Origin: Lachnospiraceae bacterium
Lineage (GTDB): Bacteria > Bacillota > Clostridia > Lachnospirales > Lachnospiraceae
NCBI GenBank assembly: GCA_024690825.1
Contig: JAILOK010000027.1
Span: 15,377-79,376 of the forward strand
Reading direction: 5' to 3'
DNA length: 64,000 bases
A program made the position numbers and the translations under genes. Below the pieces are notes generated by a model. It worked only from the letters and a program-made list of their open reading frames with translations, did no database searches and was not told the origin of the DNA. Position 1 is the stretch's first letter; the number at the start of each line of letters is the position of its first letter. Shown in pieces: positions 3,797 to 63,397 of this stretch.

Positions 3797-3925
3797 TAAC
3801 TTTCGATTGGTAACTTTAGTTTTTATAACTTTTACTATGATTTGTTAAATAACTTAAGATAGGTAATTGTTGTTGGGTAACTTTTGATAGATAACTTAAG
3901 ATAGGTAACCTTTGTTAGGTATCTT
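3797..3925. repeat. Degenerate ~14-bp tandem repeat array
   Basis: TAAC/TAAT/TATC unit heads at 3797, 3811, 3826, 3850, 3864, 3878, 3892, 3906 and 3920. TAACTTAAGATAGGTAA is exact at 3850 and 3892. Confidence 0.75.
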
Positions 3926-4070
3926 GTGCTCTGTTTTTCATTTTACTATCATAATTAATTATGATAGTACAGATTTACATAAAATTCAAGAGATATATCT
4001 GCATGAGTCAGGCGGCGAAGCGAGGGTCGTGTTGAAGATCAGTTTGTCCGGTTTTAATGTAAAACAAGCA

Positions 4071-4141: not shown

Positions 4142-6775
4142 TTATGCCTGTATTCCCATCTCCTCCAATGCTGCCTGGGCTGCTGCAAGCCTTGCTATCG
4201 GCACCCTGAAGGGCGAGCATGATACATAGTTGAGACCTACCTTGTGGCAGAAGAATACGGATGACGGATCTCCGCCGTGCTCTCCGCAGATTCCTATACG
4301 CAGGTCAGGATTGCTCTCCCTGCCCTTCTTCGTTGCCATCTCGATAAGCTGTCCCACACCGCTCTGATCGAGCTTTGCAAACGGATCCGACTCGTAGATC
4401 TTGGCCTTGTAGTAAGCCGGCAGGAACTTGCCTGCATCATCTCTTGAAAATCCGAAGGTCATCTGTGTCAGATCGTTGGTTCCGAATGAGAAGAAATCCG
4501 CTTCCTTTGCGATCTCATCTGCAGTAAGCGCTGCTCTGGGGATCTCGATCATGGTACCGATATGATAAACGATATCTGAATTTCTTTCCTTCTTTACATG
4601 CTCGGCTGTCTTGATACAGACTTCCTTCACATATTTAAGTTCCTTTGCATCTCCGACAAGCGGGATCATGATCTCAGGCTCGATAGAGAAGCCTTCCACA
4701 TCCTCAACCTCGATGGCTGCTTCCATGACGGCCCTTGTCTGCATCTCGGCGATCTCGGGATAAGTGACTGCCAGACGGCATCCCCTGTGTCCCATCATGG
4801 GATTGACTTCATGCAGGTTATTGCAGGCTTCCTTTACTTCCTCAACCGAGATGCTCATCATATCAGCCAGTTCCTTGATATCCTTGTCATTGTTTGGAAC
4901 GAATTCATGAAGCGGCGGATCGAGGAACCTGATCGTAACCGGTCTTCCCTTAAGGGCTGTGTAGAGGCCCTTGAAATCTGCCTTCTGATAAGGGATCAGC
5001 TCGTAAAGCGCCTTCTTTCTTTCATCATATGTCTTTGAAAGGATCATGCGGCGAAGCTTCGGTATCCTGTCGGGATTGAAGAACATGTGCTCTGTACGGC
5101 ACAGACCGATGCCCTCGGCGCCGTTCCTGACTGCAGTCTCCGCATCAGCCGGAGTATCGGCATTTGTGTAAACCTTGAGTTTGCGGAGAGCGTCAGCCCA
5201 GCCCATGAGTCTCTTGAAATTACCCGATATCTCAGCTTCGCTGGTTGCGATATCGCCCTTGTAGATCTTTCCCGTGGAACCGTCAAGTGAGATGTAATCA
5301 CCCTCTTTGAAGGTCTCGCCTCCCAAAGTAAAGGTCTTGTTCTCTTCATCCATCACTATATCGCCGCAGCCGGAGATACAGCATGTACCCATGCCTCTTG
5401 CAACAACCGCGGCGTGGCTTGTCATACCGCCTCTGACCGTAAGGACACCCTCTGATGAGTGCATTCCCTCGATATCCTCAGGGCTTGTCTCAAGCCTTAC
5501 AAGGATCGTTCTCTGGCCTGCCTTGTGAGCGGCCACTGCATCAGCAGCAGTGAAATAAACGCGTCCCGATGCAGCTCCGGGAGATGCCGGAAGCGCCGAT
5601 CCGACCACCTTTGCCTTCTTGACGGCTTCGGGATCGAAATTCGGGTGAAGGAGCTGGTCGAGCGACTTGGGCTCTATCCTCATGACAGCTTCCTTTAATG
5701 ATATCTTGCCCTCGTCCACAAGGTCGCATGCGATCTGCAGAGCTGCGGCAGCTGTCCTCTTTCCGTTTCTGGTCTGCAGGAAATAGAGCTTTTCTTCCTC
5801 GATGGTAAATTCCATATCCTGCATATCGCGGTAGTGATTCTCAAGCTTTCTGGCTATTCCCATGAACTGCTTGTAAACCTCGGGCATATCCTCCGCAAGC
5901 TTTGAGATCGGCTGGGGAGTACGGACACCGGCAACGACATCCTCTCCCTGTGCATTGATGAGGTATTCACCGAAAATACCCTGTTCGCCGGTGGCGGGGT
6001 TCCTGGTGAATGCCACGCCCGTACCGGACTTGTCGCCCATATTACCGAAAACCATCGACTGCACATTTACGGCCGTACCCCAGTCGCCCGGGATATCGTT
6101 CATGCGGCGGTAGATGATCGCTCTTTCATTGTCCCATGAACGGAACACCGCGCGCACAGCCTCGATAAGCTGAACCTTGGGATCCTGAGGAAATTCCTCT
6201 CCCATCGCATCCTTGTAAATGGCTTTAAACCTCTTGATGAGTTCCTTTAAGTCATCCGCGGTCATGTCGACATCAAACTTGATGCCCTTCTTTTCCTTTA
6301 TCGCGTCTATTTCCTTCTCAAAAAGGGACTTGCTCACTTCCATGACAACATCAGAGAACATCTGGATGAATCTCCTGTAGGAGTCATAAGCAAATCTCGG
6401 ATTACCGGTCTTTTTTGCAAAGCCCTCCACCGAAATATCATTCAATCCCAGGTTAAGGATGGTATCCATCATACCCGGCATCGAAGCGCGGGCTCCGGAA
6501 CGCACGGACACAAGGAGCGGATTGTCAACATCTCCAAACTTCTTGCCCTGTTTCTCCTCGAGCCATTTGAGAGCCTCGAATATCTGCTCCTGGATCTCCA
6601 TCGGTATCTCACGGTTTCTCTCGTAATACTCCGTGCAGGCCTCGGTGGTGATGGTGAAGCCCTGGGGTATGGGCAGACCGAGGTTTGTCATCTCGGCAAG
6701 ACCGGCCCCTTTGCCGCCGAGCAGATTTCTCATGCCGGCGTTTCCTTCATGGAAGTAATAGACCCATTTCTTCAT
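4142..6775 (-). CDS. ppdK: Pyruvate, phosphate dikinase
   Basis: LLGGKGAGLAEM, PLLVSVRSGA, GGMTSHAAVVARG (phospho-His motif), GIGLCRTEHMF, FSFGTNDLTQ, GICGEHGGDP; 877 aa. Confidence 0.98.
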   Translation of the reverse strand: MKKWVYYFHEGNAGMRNLLGGKGAGLAEMTNLGLPIPQGFTITTEACTEYYERNREIPMEIQEQIFEALKWLEEKQGKKFGDVDNPLLVSVRSGARASMPGMMDTILNLGLNDISVEGFAKKTGNPRFAYDSYRRFIQMFSDVVMEVSKSLFEKEIDAIKEKKGIKFDVDMTADDLKELIKRFKAIYKDAMGEEFPQDPKVQLIEAVRAVFRSWDNERAIIYRRMNDIPGDWGTAVNVQSMVFGNMGDKSGTGVAFTRNPATGEQGIFGEYLINAQGEDVVAGVRTPQPISKLAEDMPEVYKQFMGIARKLENHYRDMQDMEFTIEEEKLYFLQTRNGKRTAAAALQIACDLVDEGKISLKEAVMRIEPKSLDQLLHPNFDPEAVKKAKVVGSALPASPGAASGRVYFTAADAVAAHKAGQRTILVRLETSPEDIEGMHSSEGVLTVRGGMTSHAAVVARGMGTCCISGCGDIVMDEENKTFTLGGETFKEGDYISLDGSTGKIYKGDIATSEAEISGNFKRLMGWADALRKLKVYTNADTPADAETAVRNGAEGIGLCRTEHMFFNPDRIPKLRRMILSKTYDERKKALYELIPYQKADFKGLYTALKGRPVTIRFLDPPLHEFVPNNDKDIKELADMMSISVEEVKEACNNLHEVNPMMGHRGCRLAVTYPEIAEMQTRAVMEAAIEVEDVEGFSIEPEIMIPLVGDAKELKYVKEVCIKTAEHVKKERNSDIVYHIGTMIEIPRAALTADEIAKEADFFSFGTNDLTQMTFGFSRDDAGKFLPAYYKAKIYESDPFAKLDQSGVGQLIEMATKKGRESNPDLRIGICGEHGGDPSSVFFCHKVGLNYVSCSPFRVPIARLAAAQAALEEMGIQA

Positions 6776-8514: not shown

Positions 8515-9189
8515 CTAACCCCTGAATTCACCGTCATGCGCAACCAAAGACACACTGTCGACACCATTCAGTTCCCTTACCGCGCCGATCAGTCCGTCGG
8601 GATCCTTCACCCTCACCTCAAACACCGAATTTGTTCCGGACGAAGTAACATTTACGGATTTTACGCTCACTACCCGTCCGTATTGTCCGACGGCATTTCT
8701 TATCTCATCAGTTGATATCCTGCCCGTAAAACCGACAAACAGAAGCTGCCCTGTTTTTATTTCCGGGATAAACTTTAAGACCGCGACCGCGATCGTAACG
8801 CATACCGCCAGAATGACGGCGACCTTGTACAGTCCGGCTCCGCAGATGATGCCCGTTCCGATCGACCAGAAGAGAAACAGAAGATCTATCGGCTCTTTTA
8901 TTGCGGTACGGAACCTGACTATGGAAAGCGCGCCGACCATACCGAGCGAGATCACGAGGCTGCTCTGCATCGCCATGATGATCCCGGCCGTAACTATCGA
9001 CATCGCAACCATCGCTATATTGTATTCCTTTGAATAAAAGGCATTCTGTGTTACGAATCTGTATACGAAAAACAGATACAGGGCTATCAGAAATGTGATG
9101 CCGAAGGTGGTAAGTATCTGGGCGGCCGTTATATCCGCTCCCGAAAAACCGTTTAAGACGCTGTCTGTTATTATATCTTTGAAGCTCAT
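8515..9189 (-). CDS. DUF4956-family membrane protein
   Basis: SLGMVGALSIVRFRTAIKEP and LFWSIGTGIICG motifs; 4-5 TM segments plus an ACT-like C-terminus; ATGA overlap with the VTC gene. Confidence 0.88.
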   Translation of the reverse strand: MSFKDIITDSVLNGFSGADITAAQILTTFGITFLIALYLFFVYRFVTQNAFYSKEYNIAMVAMSIVTAGIIMAMQSSLVISLGMVGALSIVRFRTAIKEPIDLLFLFWSIGTGIICGAGLYKVAVILAVCVTIAVAVLKFIPEIKTGQLLFVGFTGRISTDEIRNAVGQYGRVVSVKSVNVTSSGTNSVFEVRVKDPDGLIGAVRELNGVDSVSLVAHDGEFRG

Positions 9190-9926
9190 GCGAAAACTCC
9201 TTTGATCCTTTGTAAGCCCATGGCATATTTTGAACTGCTGCTCCGTGTAAGACCCATGCCCGAAAGGACGCTGCTTATCTCACCGGGGAGGAATTCATCA
9301 TATTTGATCTCAAGCACATGCATGTTACCGTCAAGCACCGGTCTGCCGGTAAGTGCCGGATCAAACATCCTCTCAAAACTGTCGGAGGCGGTTATATTCC
9401 TGTCGATCGTTATCCTGACATTTGCGATGTCGTAAATGTAGGCGCTCCGCTCATAATCAATGATGCACGCAGGACTGTAAAGATCCGCCGTTATCCTTGC
9501 AAGGTATTTTTCCAGGACTCTCTTTTCTCTTTCGTTCCTGTATTCTCCGCTGTCTATGAGACCGCTCAAAATGCGGGACGCCCTTATTATATCACCCGAA
9601 ATAAGCCCGTAAAAAACCTCTTCCGTAATGAGAGCATTCATCTTGGAGATCGTATCCCTGTGCCTTATCTTTATCTCGGAAACGATCGTATCCCTGCCGC
9701 AGTCGTAGGTCCTGATCCTGTATTTCTCACGCGGCGACACGCCTGCGGTATTTTCCCTGCAACAGACAAAAGACGGACTGTCAAAATAGATGCTTCTGAT
9801 CCTGTAATGATCTCCCTTCTGATGCGGATCCGGCCGTAAAAGCGCCTTTATCCGGTTTCTCACATCAAGGAGCACATCGTCACCGACTATGAATTTTAAT
9901 TCCTTCCGGTACCCGTCCATAATCAC
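9186..9926 (-). CDS. VTC / polyphosphate-polymerase-domain protein (CYTH-like)
   Basis: YRKELKF, YRIRSIYFD, REKYRIRTY, YERSAY, VRITID and VLEIKY motifs. Start is GTG 9926 or ATG 9920. Confidence 0.88.
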   Translation of the reverse strand: MIMDGYRKELKFIVGDDVLLDVRNRIKALLRPDPHQKGDHYRIRSIYFDSPSFVCCRENTAGVSPREKYRIRTYDCGRDTIVSEIKIRHRDTISKMNALITEEVFYGLISGDIIRASRILSGLIDSGEYRNEREKRVLEKYLARITADLYSPACIIDYERSAYIYDIANVRITIDRNITASDSFERMFDPALTGRPVLDGNMHVLEIKYDEFLPGEISSVLSGMGLTRSSSSKYAMGLQRIKGVFA

Positions 9927-10002
9927 AGAAAATCATATCAAAATCGGATGATTTATTCAAGACAGGGCAGCCGGCCGGGCGATCGCCGGGCAAGCTGTTT
10001 TT

Positions 10003-10189
10003 CTGACGATACGGAATGATCTTCAACACGACCCACGCTCCGCCGCCTGACGAGCTAACTGCCAACTGCGACTTAAAACTTCCGGAAATTCGGCGTTGCC
10101 TCTTTCCCGGCGGTCTAAATCTTCGTAGGCAGTTATCTCTCGTTGCTGCGCTGATGGGTCGTTTTTGAATGATCATTCCGTATCGTCAG
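10003..10189. repeat. 187-bp rod-like imperfect palindrome (rod A); MITE-like element or structured RNA
   Basis: 19-bp perfect terminal IR CTGACGATACGGAATGATC extending to about 33 bp, with nested stems ACGAG/CTCGT, TAACTGCC/GGCAGTTA, TGCGA/TCGTA, CCGGAAA/TTTCCCGG and GGC/GCC. Confidence 0.7.
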
Positions 10190-10222
10190 GCCAAAATATT
10201 ACTCAGGCGGTCTCCCGGCCGC

Positions 10223-10251
10223 TTTACAAAAGGAACAAATGTTCGTAAAAT
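10223..10251 (+). promoter_or_regulatory. sigmaA promoter with SOS box for the Y-family polymerase
   Basis: TTTACA(10223-28)-N17-TAAAAT(10246-51); GAAC-AAAT-GTTC at 10233-10244 lies in the spacer. Confidence 0.85.
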
Positions 10252-10257
10252 AAAGGT

Positions 10258-11769
10258 ATGGAGAAAGAAAAGAGAACCTACATCGCGATCGACCTCAAAT
10301 CCTTCTACGCTTCAGTCGAATGCGTGGAAAGGGGACTCGATCCGCTTAATACAAACCTTGTCGTGGCGGACGAAAGCCGTACCGAAAAGACCATCTGCCT
10401 TGCGGTATCGCCATCCTTAAAGGAATGCGGGATCCCCGGCAGACCCCGGCTTTTCGAAGTGATACAAAGGGTTGATGAGGTAAACAAAAACCGCCTTCAG
10501 CGCGCAGACGGCCGAATGTTTACCGGTGACAGCTGCTTTAAGGATGAGCTTGATGCCGACCCTTCTCTTAAGCTTTCATATATCACTGCCGTGCCGAGGA
10601 TGGCCCTGTATAAAAGCTACAGCGCAAAGATCTTTTCAATATACTTAAGATATGTTTCAAGCGCCGATATCCACATCTACTCCGTGGATGAGGTGTTCAT
10701 GGACATCACCGGATATCTGGGGATATATAACATGACGCCCCACGAGCTTACGATAAAGATCATCCGCGAAGTCTTGAAAGAGACCGGCATCACTGCCACG
10801 GCCGGCATCGGAACAAACATGTATCTTTGCAAGATAGCAATGGATATAACGGCCAAGCACATGGAGCCGGATGCCGACGGCGTAAGGATAGCGGAACTTG
10901 ACGAAATAAGTTACAGACGCCTTTTGTGGGATCACAGGCCCATCACGGATTTCTGGCGCGTAGGCAGAGGATACCGTGACAGGCTGGCTTCCTGCGCTCT
11001 TTACACCATGGGCGACATAGCCAGGTGCTCACTTGAAAACGATGAGATCCTCTACCGTCTCTTCGGAGTAAACGCAGAGCTTTTGATCGATCATGCCTGG
11101 GGCTATGAGCCCTGCACGATGGAAGCGATCAAAAGCTATGTCCCTGAAAACAACTCCCTGAGTTCGGGCCAGGTCTTAAAAGAACCCTACAGCACAGAAA
11201 AGACCCGGATCGTCGTGCGTGAAATGGCAGACGCGCTGTCGCTTGATCTGATGAAAAAGAACCTTGTAACCGACCAGATCATCCTCACGCTTTCCTACGA
11301 CAAGGCAAGTCTTGATGATAAAAACGGTTCCGGTTATAAGGGCGAGATCACCAAAGACTACTACGGACGCGCTGTGCCAAAGCACGCTCACGGAACTGCG
11401 AATTTAGGTCACCACACTATGACCGGAGCCGAGATCACGGAAAACGCCATGAAGCTTTTTGACACGATAATCACGGAAGGGCTCTTTGTCAGAAGGATCA
11501 ATATCACCGCAAACCATGTCATCCCGTCCGAAAAAGCATCAAAAAGCCGGGATGAATACGAACAGCTTGATCTTTTTTCAATGATGCAGGAAAGGTCGCA
11601 GGATGCCTCATCGGACAGAAAAAGACTTGAAAAAGAAAAAGCGCTGCAGCAGGCAGTGCTTGAGATAAAAAACCGTTACGGCGGAAATGCCGTATTAAAA
11701 GGAACCAGCTTCATGGAAGGAGCTACGGGAAGGGAGCGCAATGAACAGGTCGGCGGACACAAAGCATAA
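10258..11769 (+). CDS. Y-family translesion DNA polymerase (UmuC/ImpB/UvrX-like)
   Basis: YIAIDLKSFYASVEC, ICLAVS, YSVDEVFMD, TATAGIGTNMYLCK, C-terminal IKNRYGGNAVLKG. Confidence 0.92.
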   Translation: MEKEKRTYIAIDLKSFYASVECVERGLDPLNTNLVVADESRTEKTICLAVSPSLKECGIPGRPRLFEVIQRVDEVNKNRLQRADGRMFTGDSCFKDELDADPSLKLSYITAVPRMALYKSYSAKIFSIYLRYVSSADIHIYSVDEVFMDITGYLGIYNMTPHELTIKIIREVLKETGITATAGIGTNMYLCKIAMDITAKHMEPDADGVRIAELDEISYRRLLWDHRPITDFWRVGRGYRDRLASCALYTMGDIARCSLENDEILYRLFGVNAELLIDHAWGYEPCTMEAIKSYVPENNSLSSGQVLKEPYSTEKTRIVVREMADALSLDLMKKNLVTDQIILTLSYDKASLDDKNGSGYKGEITKDYYGRAVPKHAHGTANLGHHTMTGAEITENAMKLFDTIITEGLFVRRINITANHVIPSEKASKSRDEYEQLDLFSMMQERSQDASSDRKRLEKEKALQQAVLEIKNRYGGNAVLKGTSFMEGATGRERNEQVGGHKA

Positions 11770-11938
11770 TAAAGGAAAATACGAAGATATCATAAACACG
11801 GAATATCCGTTCCCATCCGGCCGCAGCCGTATGTCCATGCACGACAGGGCTGCCCAGTTTGCGCCCTTTGCCGCCCTGACAGGCCTCGGGGAAGAACTCG
11901 AGAAGGTAGCGGAGGTGACAGAGGGACGGTCCCGGTGA
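11741..11938 (+). CDS. Short YolD-like accessory protein, possibly C-terminally truncated
   Basis: KYEDII...MSMHDRAAQFAPFAALTG is the N-terminal signature of genes that follow Firmicute UmuC homologues. Overlaps the polymerase end; its last codons and stop come from a REP-like unit. Confidence 0.7.
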   Translation: MNRSADTKHNKGKYEDIINTEYPFPSGRSRMSMHDRAAQFAPFAALTGLGEELEKVAEVTEGRSR

Positions 11939-11947
11939 CAACTTTCA
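11915..11947. repeat. REP-like repeat, locus 1
   Basis: GTGACAGAGGGACGGTCCCGGTGACAACTTTC. Confidence 0.75.
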
Positions 11948-12147
11948 TGCGACTCATTTTGATTCCTAAGCATTCCATTTTGAACTGTGCAGGTGAGATT
12001 ATCACCTACAAAGACTAAACCCGCATGCCATGAGCACATGCAAAGTGCGAATGACTTGCGGGTTTAAGTATTTGTTGGTGATAGGTTCACCGTCGCAGCA
12101 GTTCCCCGGAATGCGTGGAACAAAATGAGTCAAAGTGAAAGTTGTCA
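11936..12147. repeat. 212-bp rod-like imperfect palindrome (rod B)
   Basis: Nested stems TGACAACTTTCA/TGAAAGTTGTCA, GACTCATTTTG/CAAAATGAGTC, TTCC/GGAA, GCATTCC/GGAATGC, GAACT/AGTTC, GGTGA/TCACC, TATCACC/GGTGATA, ACAAA/TTTGT and TAAACCCGCA/TGCGGGTTTA. Confidence 0.8.
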
Positions 12148-12150
12148 ACT

Positions 12151-13023
12151 TCAGTTTCCGTACAGGATCCTTGCATACTCCGAATCCTTGTCAAGGATCA
12201 GTGTCTTGTCATTTCCGGTCATGGCTTCTAAGGAATCCAGCCCCCTTAGATAGTTATAAAAATCAGCCTTGTCCTCATTCCTGTAAGCGTCCGAAAGGAT
12301 CTTCATATATTCGGCTTCACCTTCGGCCTCAAGCTTTGCGGCCTCTTTTTCCGCATTCGCCTTTGTTATGCTTACCTGCTTGTCGGTCTCATTCATTATC
12401 TTTTTTGCTTCAGCCTGTCCCTTGGCACGATATCCGCTGGCGATATTATTTCTTTCGGATATCATTCTTTCATACACCGCAGCCTTGTTGTCATCGGGCA
12501 GATCCAGCGCCTTTATCTCGGCAAGCTCGATCACTATGCCGTACTGGCTTATATCCGAATTCGACTCATCGGTTATCCTATTTGTCAGCGTATTTCCGCG
12601 GGCTGCGATGATCTCGTCCTGGGTCATCGATGATATGATGTTCTTGGTGGCGTTAAATACCGCCGCGCCTATCCTTTCTTCCGCCCTTCCTCTTATCGCT
12701 CCGAGAGTCTGGTAGTATTTCACCGCATCATTTACCGACCAGATCACATAGTTGTCTGCGATCATGGATTTCTTATCCGATGTGATGACATCGGATACCG
12801 GTATGTCATAGAGCCTGTCCCCGCAGTAAACTGTCGTTATGTCCTCGATGAACGGAGTATGCACATGCAGTCCCGTATTCTTCTGAACCGCCTGTATCTT
12901 TCCAAGCCTTATGAGCAGCGCGGTCTCATTTGTATGAACGGTATAGCAGGATGAAACGATGATAAAAAATGCTATGATCAAAACTGCTATGCCGGCGATC
13001 TTAATAAAACTTTTGTTCTTCAT
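12151..13023 (-). CDS. hflC: FtsH protease modulator HflC (SPFH family)
   Basis: Single N-terminal TM; VITSDKKSMIADNYVIW, AVYERMISERN, AEGEAE, KADFYNYLR; directly follows hflK. Confidence 0.85.
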   Translation of the reverse strand: MKNKSFIKIAGIAVLIIAFFIIVSSCYTVHTNETALLIRLGKIQAVQKNTGLHVHTPFIEDITTVYCGDRLYDIPVSDVITSDKKSMIADNYVIWSVNDAVKYYQTLGAIRGRAEERIGAAVFNATKNIISSMTQDEIIAARGNTLTNRITDESNSDISQYGIVIELAEIKALDLPDDNKAAVYERMISERNNIASGYRAKGQAEAKKIMNETDKQVSITKANAEKEAAKLEAEGEAEYMKILSDAYRNEDKADFYNYLRGLDSLEAMTGNDKTLILDKDSEYARILYGN

Positions 13024-13035
13024 CCCGATACCCTC

Positions 13036-14109
13036 CTATTCTTCCGCATCAACCGAATAATCCGTCGCGTCCACAGATTCTTCCGGAATCTCGTCCTCTT
13101 CGTCCGTATTCCTTCCCTCATCGGTGAAGCTGTCCAAAGGCAGCATGGTCTGGGTCTGTCCGTCAGATATGACCACCTTTATGCCCGGAAGGATCTCTTC
13201 CATCTTTTCATAGAACATCCGGCGTTTCGTAACGGTCGGGTATTTCTGATATTCATTGTAGATCTCGTTAAACCTTGCAACCTGTCCCTCGGCTTCGGCT
13301 ATCCTTGCTTCCTTTGCGGCCGTTGCCTTCTGTATTATGGCATCCGCCTCCGCTTCCGCTTCCGGGATCTTTCTGTTCTTGTAGGCCTGGGCGTTATTCT
13401 TGTCCGTATCCGCTCCCTGCTTTGCGGTCTCTACCTCCTTGAAGGCCGCAACGATCTCGGCTGTCGGAGGTCTCGAATCCTGCACAGTGATATTGAGGAC
13501 CATAAGCCCGATATCGTGCTCGTTAAGTTCCTTCGTGATGGCTTCCTTGATATCGGCCTGTATCTGGCTCTTTCCGGTAGTCATGGCCTCGTCGACGGTA
13601 TAGTTTGATACCACCGTCCTGATGTTTGACTGCGCGATGTTGGCAAGTATCGTTTCGGGGCTTTCGGTATTATAGGTATAGGCAACCGGATCGGACACCC
13701 TGTACTCAAGATAAAAATCAATATTGAGCAGGTTGAAATCCGAGGTGATCATGATCCCGCTGGCCTCATCCACAGGATACTGCCCTTTTTGCGCATCCTC
13801 ATCTATCACATAGCCTATCGCGGTTCCGTGGGTCGTCATATCGACCATCCTCACGCTCTGCCACGGAGCCTTGAAATAAAAACCTGCGGTATTTACCTGG
13901 ATCACTCTGCCAAACTGAGTCAGAATCGCGTTCTCCTGCTCGTTTACCGCGTAAAAGCACCGTAGCAGCACTGATACGGCAATGATCGCTATGATCACAA
14001 AGGAGACCACTCCCCGTATCTTTTTGAAAGCTTCTCCCGGATCGGTATAGGTCCCGCCTTCATTGACTATGTCCGGTTTTTTCTTATAAAAGGTGAAATT
14101 CGGTTTCAT
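13036..14109 (-). CDS. hflK: FtsH protease modulator HflK (SPFH family)
   Basis: MITSDFNL, YRVSDP, QDSRPP, AFKEVETAK, AEGQVARF, YQKYPTVTKRRMFYE. Confidence 0.88.
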   Translation of the reverse strand: MKPNFTFYKKKPDIVNEGGTYTDPGEAFKKIRGVVSFVIIAIIAVSVLLRCFYAVNEQENAILTQFGRVIQVNTAGFYFKAPWQSVRMVDMTTHGTAIGYVIDEDAQKGQYPVDEASGIMITSDFNLLNIDFYLEYRVSDPVAYTYNTESPETILANIAQSNIRTVVSNYTVDEAMTTGKSQIQADIKEAITKELNEHDIGLMVLNITVQDSRPPTAEIVAAFKEVETAKQGADTDKNNAQAYKNRKIPEAEAEADAIIQKATAAKEARIAEAEGQVARFNEIYNEYQKYPTVTKRRMFYEKMEEILPGIKVVISDGQTQTMLPLDSFTDEGRNTDEEDEIPEESVDATDYSVDAEE

Positions 14110-14226: not shown

Positions 14227-14330
14227 GTGACAGGGGGACGGTTCTGCTGTCATCTTTTGTGTCAGGGGTGTGTCAGGGGGACGGTTCTTCTGTCATCTTT
14301 TGTGTCAGCAGAACCGTCCCTCTGTCAACT
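14227..14330. repeat. REP-like repeat, locus 2 (three half-sites)
   Basis: GACAGGGGGACGGTTCTG..., TCAGGGGGACGGTTCTT... and inverted CAGAACCGTCCCTCTGTC, abutting the ABC gene stop. Confidence 0.85.
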
Positions 14331-18304: not shown

Positions 18305-18403
18305 AAAGATGACAGGGGGACGGTTCTGGTGACACAAAAGGTGACAAAAGAACCGTCCCGGTGACACAAAAGTTGTCACCAGAACCGTCCCCCTGTCATC
18401 TTT
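18305..18403. repeat. REP-like repeat, locus 3
   Basis: Perfect 30-bp IR AAAGATGACAGGGGGACGGTTCTGGTGACA (18305-18334 / 18374-18403) with a third half-site inside; lies between divergent trpE and apt. Confidence 0.9.
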
Positions 18404-25711: not shown

Positions 25712-26809
25712 TTAATTTTTTTGATGTGCAAGTACAGACAGAAATCTGTTGATCAGCAGTATCATCACAGAAACATATATCAGGAAACATACGACGATGA
25801 CGACATAACTGACATAACCGCGGGCTCTGGTGACAAACTTGTTTACAAACATTGCGGCGTACAAAGATGCGATCCAGACAGCGGGGTTATTGTGAACAGC
25901 CATGAAAAGAAGCGAATTCCTGCCCCAGAACCGCGTGACCGGAAACGCCTTACCGCTCTTTGAAAGCGACATCACCATCCTGCACATCAGGATAATAAAA
26001 CCGGATCCCGCCACGGCGCCGATGTAATACAGCAGATAATTGTTAAGAACAAGCGAACGCAGATCCGTCGGCGAATTGAACCTGACCACCGCAATATTGA
26101 CCGCAAAAAAGATTACAGCGGTAAGAAGATGACAGGGGGACGGTTCTGCTGACAACTTTTTGGAAAAAAGATGACAGCAGAACCGTCCCCCTGTCATCTC
26201 AAAAAGATATCCGATCGAAATAAATGAGCAGGCGATGACCGGACGCAGAAGCATCACGATGATCTCGTTAAGACGCACATATACTGCCGGATTTTCCGGA
26301 ATGTATCCGCGGATCTCATTTACCCCCAGAGCCGCCATGGTCATGATGAGAACCGCGATCCACCTTTTCTTTCCGTCAAACTTTTTCATGATGAGAGCAA
26401 AGATCATCTCGGCAATAAACAGTGCAGGGAGAAACCACAGTACATTGATGCCGTAGAGACTTACGGCGTACCACAGCTGCACGAACATATCGGTTATGTT
26501 CATCGAATGACTGATAAAGACTCCGTAGAGGATGATCAGAAAATAGATCACGGTAAAAAGATAATAAGGGACCATGATCGTAGAGAATCTCTTTTTGAAA
26601 AAGTCCTTCATAGGGGGTATCTCGCCCTTCGCCGCAAAGAGCATTCCCGATATGATGAAAAACATCGGCATGTGAAAAGAAAAGATCCATTTACAGAACC
26701 CCTGAATATGGGGAGAAAGCGCAAAGATCGTATCATTTTGAAGGTGCCCGCATAATACGAGCACCATTCCTATACCTTTTGCAAGATCAATATAAGCTAC
26801 ACGTTTCAT
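25712..26809 (-). CDS. Acyltransferase-3 (OafA-like) membrane O-acyltransferase containing an in-frame REP-like element
   Basis: YIDLAKGIGMVLVLCGH, IFSFHMPMFFIISG, VLWFLPALF, WGRNSLLFMAVH. Confidence 0.88.
   Translation of the reverse strand: MKRVAYIDLAKGIGMVLVLCGHLQNDTIFALSPHIQGFCKWIFSFHMPMFFIISGMLFAAKGEIPPMKDFFKKRFSTIMVPYYLFTVIYFLIILYGVFISHSMNITDMFVQLWYAVSLYGINVLWFLPALFIAEMIFALIMKKFDGKKRWIAVLIMTMAALGVNEIRGYIPENPAVYVRLNEIIVMLLRPVIACSFISIGYLFEMTGGRFCCHLFSKKLSAEPSPCHLLTAVIFFAVNIAVVRFNSPTDLRSLVLNNYLLYYIGAVAGSGFIILMCRMVMSLSKSGKAFPVTRFWGRNSLLFMAVHNNPAVWIASLYAAMFVNKFVTRARGYVSYVVIVVCFLIYVSVMILLINRFLSVLAHQKN
26127..26199. repeat. REP-like repeat, locus 4, inside a coding sequence
   Basis: Perfect 25-bp IR AGATGACAGGGGGACGGTTCTGCTG / CAGCAGAACCGTCCCCCTGTCATCT; translated as MTGGRFCCHLFSKKLSAEPSPCHL. 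Confidence 0.9.
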
Positions 26810-40267: not shown

Positions 40268-40330
40268 GTTGTCAGGGGGACGGTTCTGTTGTCAACTTTT
40301 GTGACAGAGGGACGGTTCTGTTGTCATCTC
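40268..40330. repeat. REP-like repeat, locus 5 (two direct half-sites)
   Basis: GTCAGGGGGACGGTTCTGTTGTCAACTTTTGTGACAGAGGGACGGTTCTGTTGTCATC between the AEP transaminase and pepM. Confidence 0.85.
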
Positions 40331-41522: not shown

Positions 41523-41597
41523 AAAAGATGACAGAGGGACGGTTCTGGTGTCAACTTTTGTGTCACCAGAACCGTCCCCCTGTCACCCCTGTCATCT
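41523..41597. repeat. REP-like repeat, locus 6
   Basis: GATGACAGAGGGACGGTTCTGGTG...CACCAGAACCGTCCCCCTGTCA hairpin directly after the htpG stop. Confidence 0.88.
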
Positions 41598-57335: not shown

Positions 57336-57535
57336 AACGCGGCATAAGCATCTGCTTTTAAGTGACACTTATACCGCGTTCTTTGATTTACTAAACATGA
57401 TGTCCACGAATTGCTCCGCCGCTTCGCAGCTTTCGCAATTCTTAAAACACTCACAATCCGTGCTGTCGCACTACTTGTTCGTGTTTTACGGTTCTCAAGT
57501 TCCAAATCCTCTTTGCGCCAGCGCAATCGGATTTG
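57336..57535 (-). other. Four consecutive hairpins between the SBP and ATPase genes
   Basis: CAAATCC/GGATTTG (57503-35), TAAAACAC/GTGTTTTA (57443-88), GAATTGC/GCAATTC (57408-41), and a 13-bp stem at 57336-80 followed by a T run on the minus strand. Confidence 0.65.
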
Positions 57536-57554
57536 TCACTCTCGCACCTGGCTA

Positions 57555-58634
57555 TCAAATGCCGTAGCTGTCAACATCTTCCTGTGTGATCTTTGTTGCG
57601 TCAAATCCCTTCTCATCCATGATGATGGTCTTCTCTGCTACAGTTCCGCCGCTCTCAAGAGTCTTGATAACGTCGTTGATGTAAGATGACTGGAAAGGAT
57701 TGCACTGTCCGTCATAGTTCCAGTTTCCTGCAAGGAGCTCTTCAAGTGCCCACTTGTTGCAGTCAAAGCCCATTACGATAACGTCTTTGCCTACGCCGTG
57801 AGAGATGTTAGCCTTGTCAAGTGCTGCAACGGCACCCTTAGCCATATCGTCGTTCTCTGCATAGATTACGTTGAACTTTGTTCCTGCGTCGATAACTGAC
57901 TGAACGATCTGCTGTGCATTCTCTGCATTCCACTCAGCTGTCTGCTGTGTAACGATGTTCCAGTTGCTTTCTGCTGCAACCTTTGCATCAAGAGCGCCTG
58001 AACGGCCCTTCTGAGCTGCTGAACCCATAACACCCTGGATGTGGATTACATTGTACTCATCAAGTCCCTGATCTGCAAGCCAGTTAACAGCGGTCTCGCC
58101 TTCCTTGTCCATATCGGAAACGATTGATGCTGCATAGAGGCTGGGATCTGCGTCGATTGTACGGTCGAAAAGGATAACCTGGATTCCTGCATCCTGTGCA
58201 TCCTGAAGAACTGAATCCCATCCTGATGTATCAGCTGCTGAAAGGAGAAGATAATCAACACCGTCCTGGATGAACTTCTGAGCTGCTGTGATCTGCTCAT
58301 CGTTCTTAAGGCTGTATGCGAATGATGCTTCGTATCCGTTTGCCTCTGTGAAGGTATTCTTCAGATCCTTGTCGTTAGCTGTACGATATCCGGACTCGTT
58401 GGGGTCGTTGTTGATGATACCAACCTTGATGAGGTCTCCGCTGCTCTCTGCTGCAGGTGCCTCTGCCTCTGCTGCGGGCTCCTCTGCCTCTGCTGCAGGT
58501 GCAGGCTCTTCTGCTGCGGGCTCCTCAGCTGCTGCGGGCTCTGCTGCCGGAGCGGGTGCTGCTGCTTCGCCGCAGGCCATGAGGCCAAATGCCATTGCTG
58601 ATGCAACCAATACTGCCAAAACTTTCTTCTTCAT
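57555..58634 (-). CDS. Sugar ABC substrate-binding lipoprotein (YtfQ-like) with A/E/P-rich linker
   Basis: Lipobox LMAC; NNDPNESGYR, ILFDR, YAENDDMAKG. Confidence 0.92.
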   Translation of the reverse strand: MKKKVLAVLVASAMAFGLMACGEAAAPAPAAEPAAAEEPAAEEPAPAAEAEEPAAEAEAPAAESSGDLIKVGIINNDPNESGYRTANDKDLKNTFTEANGYEASFAYSLKNDEQITAAQKFIQDGVDYLLLSAADTSGWDSVLQDAQDAGIQVILFDRTIDADPSLYAASIVSDMDKEGETAVNWLADQGLDEYNVIHIQGVMGSAAQKGRSGALDAKVAAESNWNIVTQQTAEWNAENAQQIVQSVIDAGTKFNVIYAENDDMAKGAVAALDKANISHGVGKDVIVMGFDCNKWALEELLAGNWNYDGQCNPFQSSYINDVIKTLESGGTVAEKTIIMDEKGFDATKITQEDVDSYGI

Positions 58635-63332: not shown

Positions 63333-63397
63333 TGTGACAGGGGGACGGTTCCGGTGACAACTTTTGTGACAGGGGGACGGTTCTACTGTCATCTTTT
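63333..63397. repeat. REP-like repeat, locus 7 (two direct half-sites)
   Basis: GTGACAGGGGGACGGTTCCGGTGACAACTTTTGTGACAGGGGGACGGTTCTACTGTCATC. Confidence 0.85.

Follow-up and report, generated by a model that had tools for sequence, protein, structure and literature searches.

RESULTS

Two long palindromes flank a polymerase operon

The 64,000-nt stretch of a Lachnospiraceae bacterium analyzed here (contig JAILOK010000027.1, positions 15,377 to 79,376; hereafter "the window") carries a Y-family DNA polymerase gene overlapped by a 65-amino-acid (65-aa) open reading frame (ORF) and lying between a VTC-domain gene and two SPFH/HflC-type genes. Each of the two intergenic spacers on either side of this operon holds a long imperfect palindrome, which we call rod A (upstream) and rod B (downstream) (Table 1). 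A first-pass annotation made from the letters alone had described the two as related and inverted, had taken them for either mobile hairpin elements or a structured RNA, and had suggested that they might delimit a mobile SOS-mutagenesis cassette. The results described below make it probable that rods A and B are two diverged, oppositely oriented copies of a dispersed family of non-coding, rod-shaped palindromic repeats present in the chromosomes of a gut or rumen Lachnospiraceae lineage.

TABLE 1 Features of the polymerase locus and of the rod family in the window (REP, repetitive extragenic palindrome; L087, sister strain; R2, covariance model; Bv1 and Bv2, variant B-type copies)
Feature	Position (nt)	Strand	Remarks
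Half-rod remnant	4007-4052	-	Left arm of an A-type copy with the usual flank CCGGACAAAC, truncated after CCTGAC
VTC-domain gene	9186-9926	-	
VTC-gene promoter-like site	9932-9960	-	TTGAAT-17-TATGAT, TG upstream; not part of the element
Rod A, full unit	9965-10216 (252 nt)	+	Imperfect palindrome, absent from L087
Rod A, inner part as first read	10003-10189 (187 nt)	+	RNA fold; R2 score
A-type family core	10017-10175	+	At least 80% identity to copies elsewhere
Polymerase promoter-like site	10223-10251	+	TTTACA-17-TAAAAT, 10/12; not part of the element
Y-family polymerase gene	10258-11769	+	Pfam IMS and IMS_C
65-aa ORF, overlapping the polymerase gene	11741-11938	+	No Pfam match
REP unit GTGACAGAGGGACGGTCCCGGTGACA	11915-11940	+	Abuts rod B, overlaps the last codons of the 65-aa ORF
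Rod B as first read	11936-12147	-	Outermost stem belongs to a REP doublet (its inner stem)
Rod B proper	~11946-12133 (~188 nt)	-	Segment in the loop of a REP doublet
B-type family core	11953-12129	-	Recurs in Bv1 and Bv2
Two SPFH/HflC-type genes	12151-13023 and 13036-14109	-	

Both rods fold end to end, as described at first reading. Folded as RNA, rod A (9995-10200, plus strand) reaches -93.2 kcal/mol, compared with -50.0 +/- 3.9 kcal/mol for its dinucleotide shuffles (z = -11.0; 0/200), and rod B (11925-12160, minus strand) reaches -115.4 kcal/mol, compared with -57.8 +/- 4.1 kcal/mol (z = -14.0). In a sliding 200-nt fold of the whole window, no other stretch was as stable as either of the two rods, and the interval 9969-10223 formed a single hairpin of 99 pairs (-128 kcal/mol). 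We compared the locus with contigs of public gut metagenome runs (designated X1, X2, and so on) and found that independent contigs from runs X1, X3, and X5 read through rod A and across its junctions with identical sequence, showing that rod A is not an assembly artifact. One contig of run X2 skips both rods; this is the sister strain L087 described below, and the comparison with it shifted the limits of the rods, such that rod A is wider than first read (9965-10216) and rod B narrower (~11946-12133). The outer stem at site B (TGACAAC.../...GTTGTCA) is part of a pre-existing REP doublet and does not belong to the rod proper. Overall, the copies that we found span 160-250 nt, with a full unit of 252 nt for rod A and ~188 nt for rod B. 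A small protein encoded by the open frame that runs through rod A (10016-10168) was ruled out because 1-nt deletions in variant A-type copies (at 10048 and at 10072-10074) break the frame; used as a protein query for further copies, this frame returned no candidates.

Rods A and B are homologous

Local alignment of rod A (plus strand) with rod B (minus strand) gave a score of 36, against 19.7 +/- 3.1 for dinucleotide shuffles (0/500) and, in a check set beforehand, against 19.2 +/- 2.9 for shuffles of rod B that keep it palindromic (maximum, 33; 0/1000); the alignment of the two plus strands scored 24. The 23/34 arm identity reported at first reading is exact, and the compensatory pair reported with it, TAACTGCC/GGCAGTTA in place of TATCACC/GGTGATA, is indeed present. 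We also built a covariance model, R2, from the minus strands of rod B and of its two variants Bv1 and Bv2 only, leaving rod A out. R2 nevertheless recovered rod A, at 70.3 bits (E of ~3e-18) on the plus strand and 17.1 bits on the minus strand, and gave the ordinary REP doublets of the window at most 22 bits, equally on both strands. The alignment, shuffle, and R2 results together establish that the two rods are homologues set in opposite orientations.

We derived a consensus structure from a four-sequence alignment of rod A (plus strand) with rod B, Bv1, and Bv2 (minus strands). The consensus hairpin has 68 pairs, 30 of which are changed on both sides; 91.7% of all cells are paired, and sliding the partners by 1-3 columns lowers this proportion to 30-40%. 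Positions left unpaired are shared by A and B in 19 cases, compared with 9.2 expected (p of ~0.007). The core of the family is asymmetric and conserved, and the outer parts are variable yet always paired. Judging from alignment and covariation, then, the two rods are members of a single, structurally conserved family, inverted relative to each other and carrying compensatory changes. A GTAG tag like that of REPs of the REP-associated tyrosine transposase (RAYT) type was considered and dropped: it is invariant opposite CAAC/CAAT in A, B, Bv1, and Bv2, but other A-type copies read ...CTTAAGCAGG... there.

Copies are dispersed over many genomic contexts

Further copies of the family, foreseen at first reading, occur in other contexts in five metagenome runs. 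The A-type core is matched wholly or partly by 16 other contigs (runs X1, X2, X3, X6, and X7), and several of these matches begin at 10017 and/or stop at 10175, giving way to unrelated and mutually different flanks; close to the core, the flanks follow a loose consensus (...GGCGG.ACAAAC, then the core, then GTTCGCTCCGCC...). Some A-type copies differ in the apex only. Letter-level rebuilding was confined to the B-type variants. Bv1 (run X2) covers 11953-12129 with 20 substitutions relative to rod B and has no REP flanks; Bv2 (run X1) covers 11956-12126 with 29 substitutions and 3 indels and is flanked by a perfect 24-nt inverted repeat with REP sequence. Both rebuilt variants still fold as rods (-86 and -115 kcal/mol, respectively), and their substitutions are partly mirrored between the arms (12004 A>G with 12079 T>C; 12005 C>A with 12078 G>T). 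The window itself holds, in addition to the two rods, a half-rod that is identical at 33/35 positions to the reverse complement of 10017-10051 (Table 1). Rods A and B themselves each lie at an intergenic spot where nothing is disrupted; the genes on either side of rod B are convergent, and the REP doublet between them holds the rod in its apical loop.

Searches of other collections yielded no further members. A scan of Joint Genome Institute (JGI) metagenomes with a two-arm pattern gave four matches and two scans of IMG/VR gave two matches each, none of them folding as a rod of this family, and a BLAST search with both rods found no match among 72,556 plasmids and 50,697 phage records. The rods make up a family of long palindromic repeats, from uncultured Lachnospiraceae, that had not been catalogued before.

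The plasmid and phage result bears on the idea that the rods are functional single-stranded DNA (ssDNA) sites of a plasmid, an integrative and conjugative element (ICE), or an integron, such as a single-strand origin, a Frpo-type ssDNA promoter, or an attC site. Such sites would likewise be long imperfect hairpins with conserved mismatches whose orientation matters, and Y-family polymerase genes are common on conjugative elements. However, a scan of every long ORF in the window (42 in all) assigned most of them to housekeeping and transport families (a few are without a match), including PPDK, Rho, TrpE/G, Hsp90, ABC transporters, and two-component systems, and not one of the 42 matched a transposase, integrase, relaxase, Rep, IntI, or phage family. 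The whole 64 kb is ordinary chromosome, and the polymerase operon is an ordinary chromosomal gene pair. There are also no promoter-like hexamers within the rods, and the genes between the rods exist without them in other genomes (see below). Sites of the attC type measure ~57-141 bp, and the rods, at 190-250 nt, are longer. An attC site or gene cassette and a plasmid or ICE origin or promoter were both rejected as candidates on these grounds, and we regard the ssDNA-site explanation as a whole as very unlikely.

A sister strain has the same operon and neither rod

The contig L087, from run X2, was reached through the 90% cluster of the polymerase. It is ~97% identical to the window over the locus (59 differences in 1,729 nt) and has the same order of VTC gene, polymerase gene, 65-aa ORF, and HflC gene, but neither rod. 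At site A, L087 reads ...ATTCAAGACA-GG-CCGCTTTACA..., so that the 252 nt of the rod A unit are cleanly absent; the junction is ambiguous by the 2 nt GG, which can be read as a duplication or as microhomology. At site B, L087 has a plain REP doublet, GTGACAGAGGGACGGTCCCGGTGACAAC-TTTTTGTTGAAAT-GTTGTCACCGGGACTGTCCCTCTGTCAC, with the segments GTGACAAC-TTTTTGTTGAAAT-GTTGTCAC at the place of rod B. At the same site, the window has kept the left REP unit and the stem TGACAAC/GTTGTCA, has ~188 nt in the loop, and has lost the right REP unit. Rod B is also absent in runs X6 and X7, which come from another study. An argument from parsimony on the polarity of these differences was dropped, because X6/X7 share 10/15 differences with L087, perhaps as one lineage, and are thus not independent witnesses of polarity.

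Other polymerase loci are likewise free of rods. The nearest reference loci (L001-L003) have other neighbors and no rods; a model, R1, found no copy in 80 other polymerase loci (648 kb) plus L087, nor any A- or B-type copy in the relatives reached through the HflC and PPDK clusters (L090-L098). The comparison with L087 indicates that the two rods are separate strain differences, each inside its own intergenic spacer. Since L087 has the polymerase operon at the same place without the rods, the rods do not mark a mobile cassette. The expectation that 10003-12147 would behave as a single indel in related genomes likewise failed, in that L087 keeps the operon and lacks each rod separately, and the rods turned out to be dispersed and unlinked to the polymerase, an outcome set beforehand as one that would refute the cassette idea alone. 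Only position, one rod on each side of the operon and in inverted orientation, speaks for a cassette with the rods as its two ends; against it stand the same promoter and LexA-type box in L087 with neither rod beside them, the rod-free polymerase loci in other surroundings and the absence of any R1 copy from the 80 loci, the further rod copies in unrelated contexts, and the lack of a recombinase gene nearby. We consider a rod-bounded cassette extremely unlikely: that the rods bracket the polymerase operon is a coincidence of two neighboring intergenic spacers.

The empty sites allow another explanation, namely that the rods are old, immobile local palindromes lost from sister strains by palindrome-stimulated deletion, the similar sequences elsewhere being relics or products of gene conversion. 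Long palindromes are prone to deletion, the site A deletion is bounded by a 2-nt GG microhomology, and the differences can be read as losses as well as gains. In addition, the PPDK-RACo spacer of the relative L098 contains a different 235-nt rod and that of the window a half-rod, which implies that such spacers hold rods repeatedly. However, copies that are 80-90% identical occur in many flanking contexts and in several samples, and rod B sits in a REP doublet that is intact in L087; insertion into the loop is easier to envisage than a symmetric deletion that recreates the short hairpin. Immobile palindromes therefore strike us as quite unlikely.

The rods have the properties of DNA palindromes

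Two observations could be taken to mean that the rods are a structured RNA family (small RNAs, or cis-acting 3′-untranslated-region or terminator hairpins) whose structure is selected on the transcript: the covariation of 30/68 pairs on both sides and the internal loops that A and B have at the same positions. The covariance model is moreover sensitive to orientation, and rod B is located where both convergent transcripts should end, with a terminator-like apical hairpin predicted in it (12044-12020, minus strand). No Rfam model matched either rod at the gathering score, however. At E values of up to 10 over 9500-12700, there were two chance matches outside the rods, one of a small nucleolar RNA model inside the polymerase gene and one of an internal ribosome entry site model at the 3′ end of the 65-aa ORF. 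6S RNA (RF00013), a candidate named at first reading, was tried and was not among them, and it was rejected accordingly. No promoter-like site was found inside either rod, and rod A takes up the space that separates two divergent -35 boxes, that of the VTC gene ending at 9960, 4 nt from the rod, and that of the polymerase gene starting at 10223, 6 nt past it, so that no transcript of rod A is expected.

The folds themselves are strand symmetric. For the two strands, the predicted energies are -90/-101 (A), -111/-111 (B), -86/-89 (Bv1), and -115/-125 (Bv2) kcal/mol; G-U pairs number 2-4 among the 68-88 pairs per strand in these four sequences, and their alignment has 7 G-U cells and 7 A-C cells. 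A transcript structure would be expected to tolerate G-U pairs on one strand only, and so the rarity and symmetry of these pairs, together with the equal folding of the strands, point to DNA palindromes rather than RNA. Given in addition that the sister strain has neither rod at the same locus, we consider a structured RNA family quite unlikely. A secondary role of rod B as a terminator between the convergent genes is conceivable.

REP units are associated with B-type copies

The REP pattern GACAGNGGGACGGTNCNG occurs at 14 sites in the window, against 0.09 expected. The unit that abuts rod B forms the last codons of the 65-aa ORF, and its inverted partner is present in L087 and missing in the window. 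Rod B has the left REP unit only, Bv2 has both, and rod A and Bv1 have none that is recognizable. A 31-nt fragment of a B-type end lies between REP units in runs X2 and X6, and two A-type copies in X6 run directly into a REP unit. Because REP units thus recur at the ends of B-type copies (in the window, in Bv2, and around the 31-nt fragment) and appear beside the two A-type copies of X6, at least the B type is best guessed to move as a REP doublet with a very long spacer.

Over the window as a whole, REP-like units (GACAGRGGGACGGTTCTG within TGACAG...CTGTCA) form mostly intergenic inverted doublets or small clusters (11917-11934, 14229-14326, 18311-18397, 26131-26195, 40271-40320, 41530-41584, and 63336-63385), the doublets folding as perfect 25-35-bp hairpins. 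In relatives L094-L096, inverted pairs of another kind of REP unit, GTGGGACAGGGGACGTTTCTCTGTCCCAC, enclose a doublet of the first kind; these nested palindromes lie at 5878-6020 and 3741-3885 in L094, 5993-6151 in L095, and 45-190 in L096, and one of them follows immediately downstream of the HflC gene, a location that matches that of rod B in the window.

Other hairpins were encountered in the relatives. The 235-nt rod of L098 (5362-5597; -92.8 kcal/mol, z = -8.2) lies in the PPDK-RACo spacer of a genome that keeps the PPDK-RACo-metalloenzyme gene order, the spacer at which the window has its A-type half copy; by BLAST and model R1, it is unrelated to A or B. Two further repeat families came to light: a 259-nt element with the ends GTGCTGTTTTTC...GAAAAACAGCAC occurs in two assemblies in opposite orientation (L003, 846-1104; L097, 506-764), and L078 has two hairpin elements of ~233 nt (898-1131 and 5813-6045) with a common 30-nt terminal inverted repeat, GTGTATAACGTATTATATTTATGCATATCA. 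The rods, the nested REP doublets, and these other inverted-repeat elements together show that the piling up of hairpins in intergenic regions is a general habit of these genomes.

The polymerase operon and other features of the window

The spacer of the polymerase promoter-like site holds a GAAC-N4-GTTC box, GAACAAATGTTC, of the LexA/Cheo-box type of Firmicutes, which makes "SOS polymerase operon" a fair description. L087 has this region unchanged, and L001-L003 likewise carry both the promoter and the box. In the window and its relatives (10245-10260; upstream ends of L001-L003), the start codon of the polymerase gene is only 7 nt past the -10 box, and the polymerase mRNA is thus probably leaderless. 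Rumen and gut Lachnospiraceae supply the nearest relatives of the polymerase. In the databases, several homologues of this IMS-family protein bear the source label "DNA methylase," apparently a misnomer. L087 retains the 65-aa ORF, inspection by eye shows it in L001-L003 as well (motif ...RAAQFAPFAALTGL...), and its product may be a YolD-like partner of the polymerase. Exact-protein look-ups of the polymerase, HflC, and VTC proteins of the window returned no record.

Two further features of the window lie away from the operon. The Rfam Clostridiales-1 RNA (RF01699) was matched over its full length at 57398-57557 on the minus strand (109 bits, against a gathering score of 48). It sits in a sugar ABC-transporter operon, in the interval between the binding-protein gene and the ATPase gene, and because the longest ATPase ORF overlaps it, the true ATPase start is probably further downstream. 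A direct-repeat array at 3800-3920, with TAACTTAAGATAGGTAA and many GTTACC-like words, lies upstream of a RACo-type gene, and L098 has a similar GTTACC-like array (5700-5860) upstream of the same gene; these arrays may be sets of regulator binding sites.

DISCUSSION

The description of the rods as MITE (miniature inverted-repeat transposable element)- or REPIN-like elements, offered at first reading beside the RNA alternative, has gained support from the copies in other contexts, the strain-variable presence, and the REP units at B-type ends; the RNA alternative has lost ground. Comparison with the known classes shows where the likeness stops. REPINs are REP doublets that form hairpins, are mobilized by RAYT transposases, and keep the hairpin in their spacers by compensatory changes; in the type example, the REP-to-REP distance is 71 bp (Bertels & Rainey 2011, PMC3116915). 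The rods resemble them in being non-coding, intergenic, dispersed, and symmetric hairpins whose pairing is kept by compensatory changes, in leaving singlet remnants, and, in part, in the inverted REP units often seen at the ends of B-type copies. They differ in the length of the hairpin (160-250 nt), in conserving an inner core and not only REP ends, in that rod A and Bv1 are without clean REP units, and in that there is no RAYT gene in the window, where the REP units are only putative RAYT substrates. ERIC (enterobacterial repetitive intergenic consensus) elements, also called intergenic repeat units (IRUs), are ~127 bp long and are found in Enterobacteria in transcribed spacers, in either orientation, with no known transposase. 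Like them, the rods are imperfect palindromes that fold end to end, occur only between genes and in either orientation, and vary between strains, and ERIC size variants that arise by internal insertion or deletion recall the rod A copies that differ only at the apex; there is, however, no sequence relationship, and the spacer of rod A is probably untranscribed.

MITEs (Correia/NEMIS, RUP, and others) are defined by the terminal inverted repeats of a parent insertion sequence (IS) and by target-site duplications (PMC10969869, PMC11602168). The rods share with them small size, absence of coding capacity, multiple copies, intergenic location, inverted symmetry, and insertion polymorphism between strains. 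However, the termini of the rods vary from copy to copy (A, B, Bv1, Bv2, and the A-type flanks), no IS is present in the window, and there is no clear target-site duplication, only GG at site A and none at site B; lacking visible terminal repeats in common, the rods fall short of being classical MITEs. Bacterial interspersed mosaic elements (BIMEs) are nested palindromic mosaics, and IS1397-type elements insert into REP loops and encode their own transposase. Rod B in the apical loop of a REP doublet and the nested REP doublets of L094-L096 are reminiscent of both, but the rods encode nothing. We therefore describe the rods as palindromic interspersed repeats that behave like MITEs, REPINs, and ERIC sequences; the fit to REPINs is partial, given the deviating size and the copies that have no REP ends.

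How might such a family have spread? The copies would have moved as DNA, with the mobilizing enzyme acting in trans from a gene at some other place in the genome, and recognition or copying would involve the hairpin or cruciform form, a requirement that would account for the preservation of pairing. B-type copies may ride inside REP doublets, as REPIN-like elements with a very long spacer, and this location makes a RAYT the leading candidate for the enzyme; we put the REP/RAYT route forward tentatively, as a possibility that we think somewhat doubtful. Several points weigh against mobile repeats as the explanation. No transposase or RAYT gene is linked to the family, and the window has none. 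No clear target-site duplication is seen, the GG at site A being ambiguous, and site B is not a clean insertion, in that the right REP unit is missing as well. It is the inner core that is conserved, while A, B, and the other copies have different ends; a classical MITE shows the opposite arrangement. Clean REP units are missing from the ends of rod A and of Bv1. Conservation of internal loops between A and B would also be consistent with a functional RNA or with a structure that binds protein. Insertion in the lineage of the window cannot be told apart from loss in the sister strains, and the evidence for additional copies is from contigs of similar depth in metagenomes, not from a closed genome.

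A more unusual reading is that the rods are a distinct kind of mobile DNA, selected for structure and not for ends. In hairpin or cruciform DNA, an enzyme would recognize the asymmetric core with its fixed loops and would insert copies into the apical loops of hairpins such as REP doublets, so that palindromes nest and copies also ride along with REP units. We think this rather improbable, and continue to favor a dispersed repeat family, in the general sense given at the outset, as the explanation of rods A and B.

Removing the idea of a rod-bounded mobile SOS-mutagenesis cassette disposes of a false lead at this locus. What takes its place is a new repeat family with no Rfam, plasmid, or phage match. 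Repeats of this kind break short-read assemblies and vary between close strains, and they are usable as strain markers. To our knowledge, REP/RAYT systems have been little studied in Firmicutes, and the conserved core, variable ends, and REP-doublet placement of the rods provide a concrete case of the spread of long hairpin repeats in this group.

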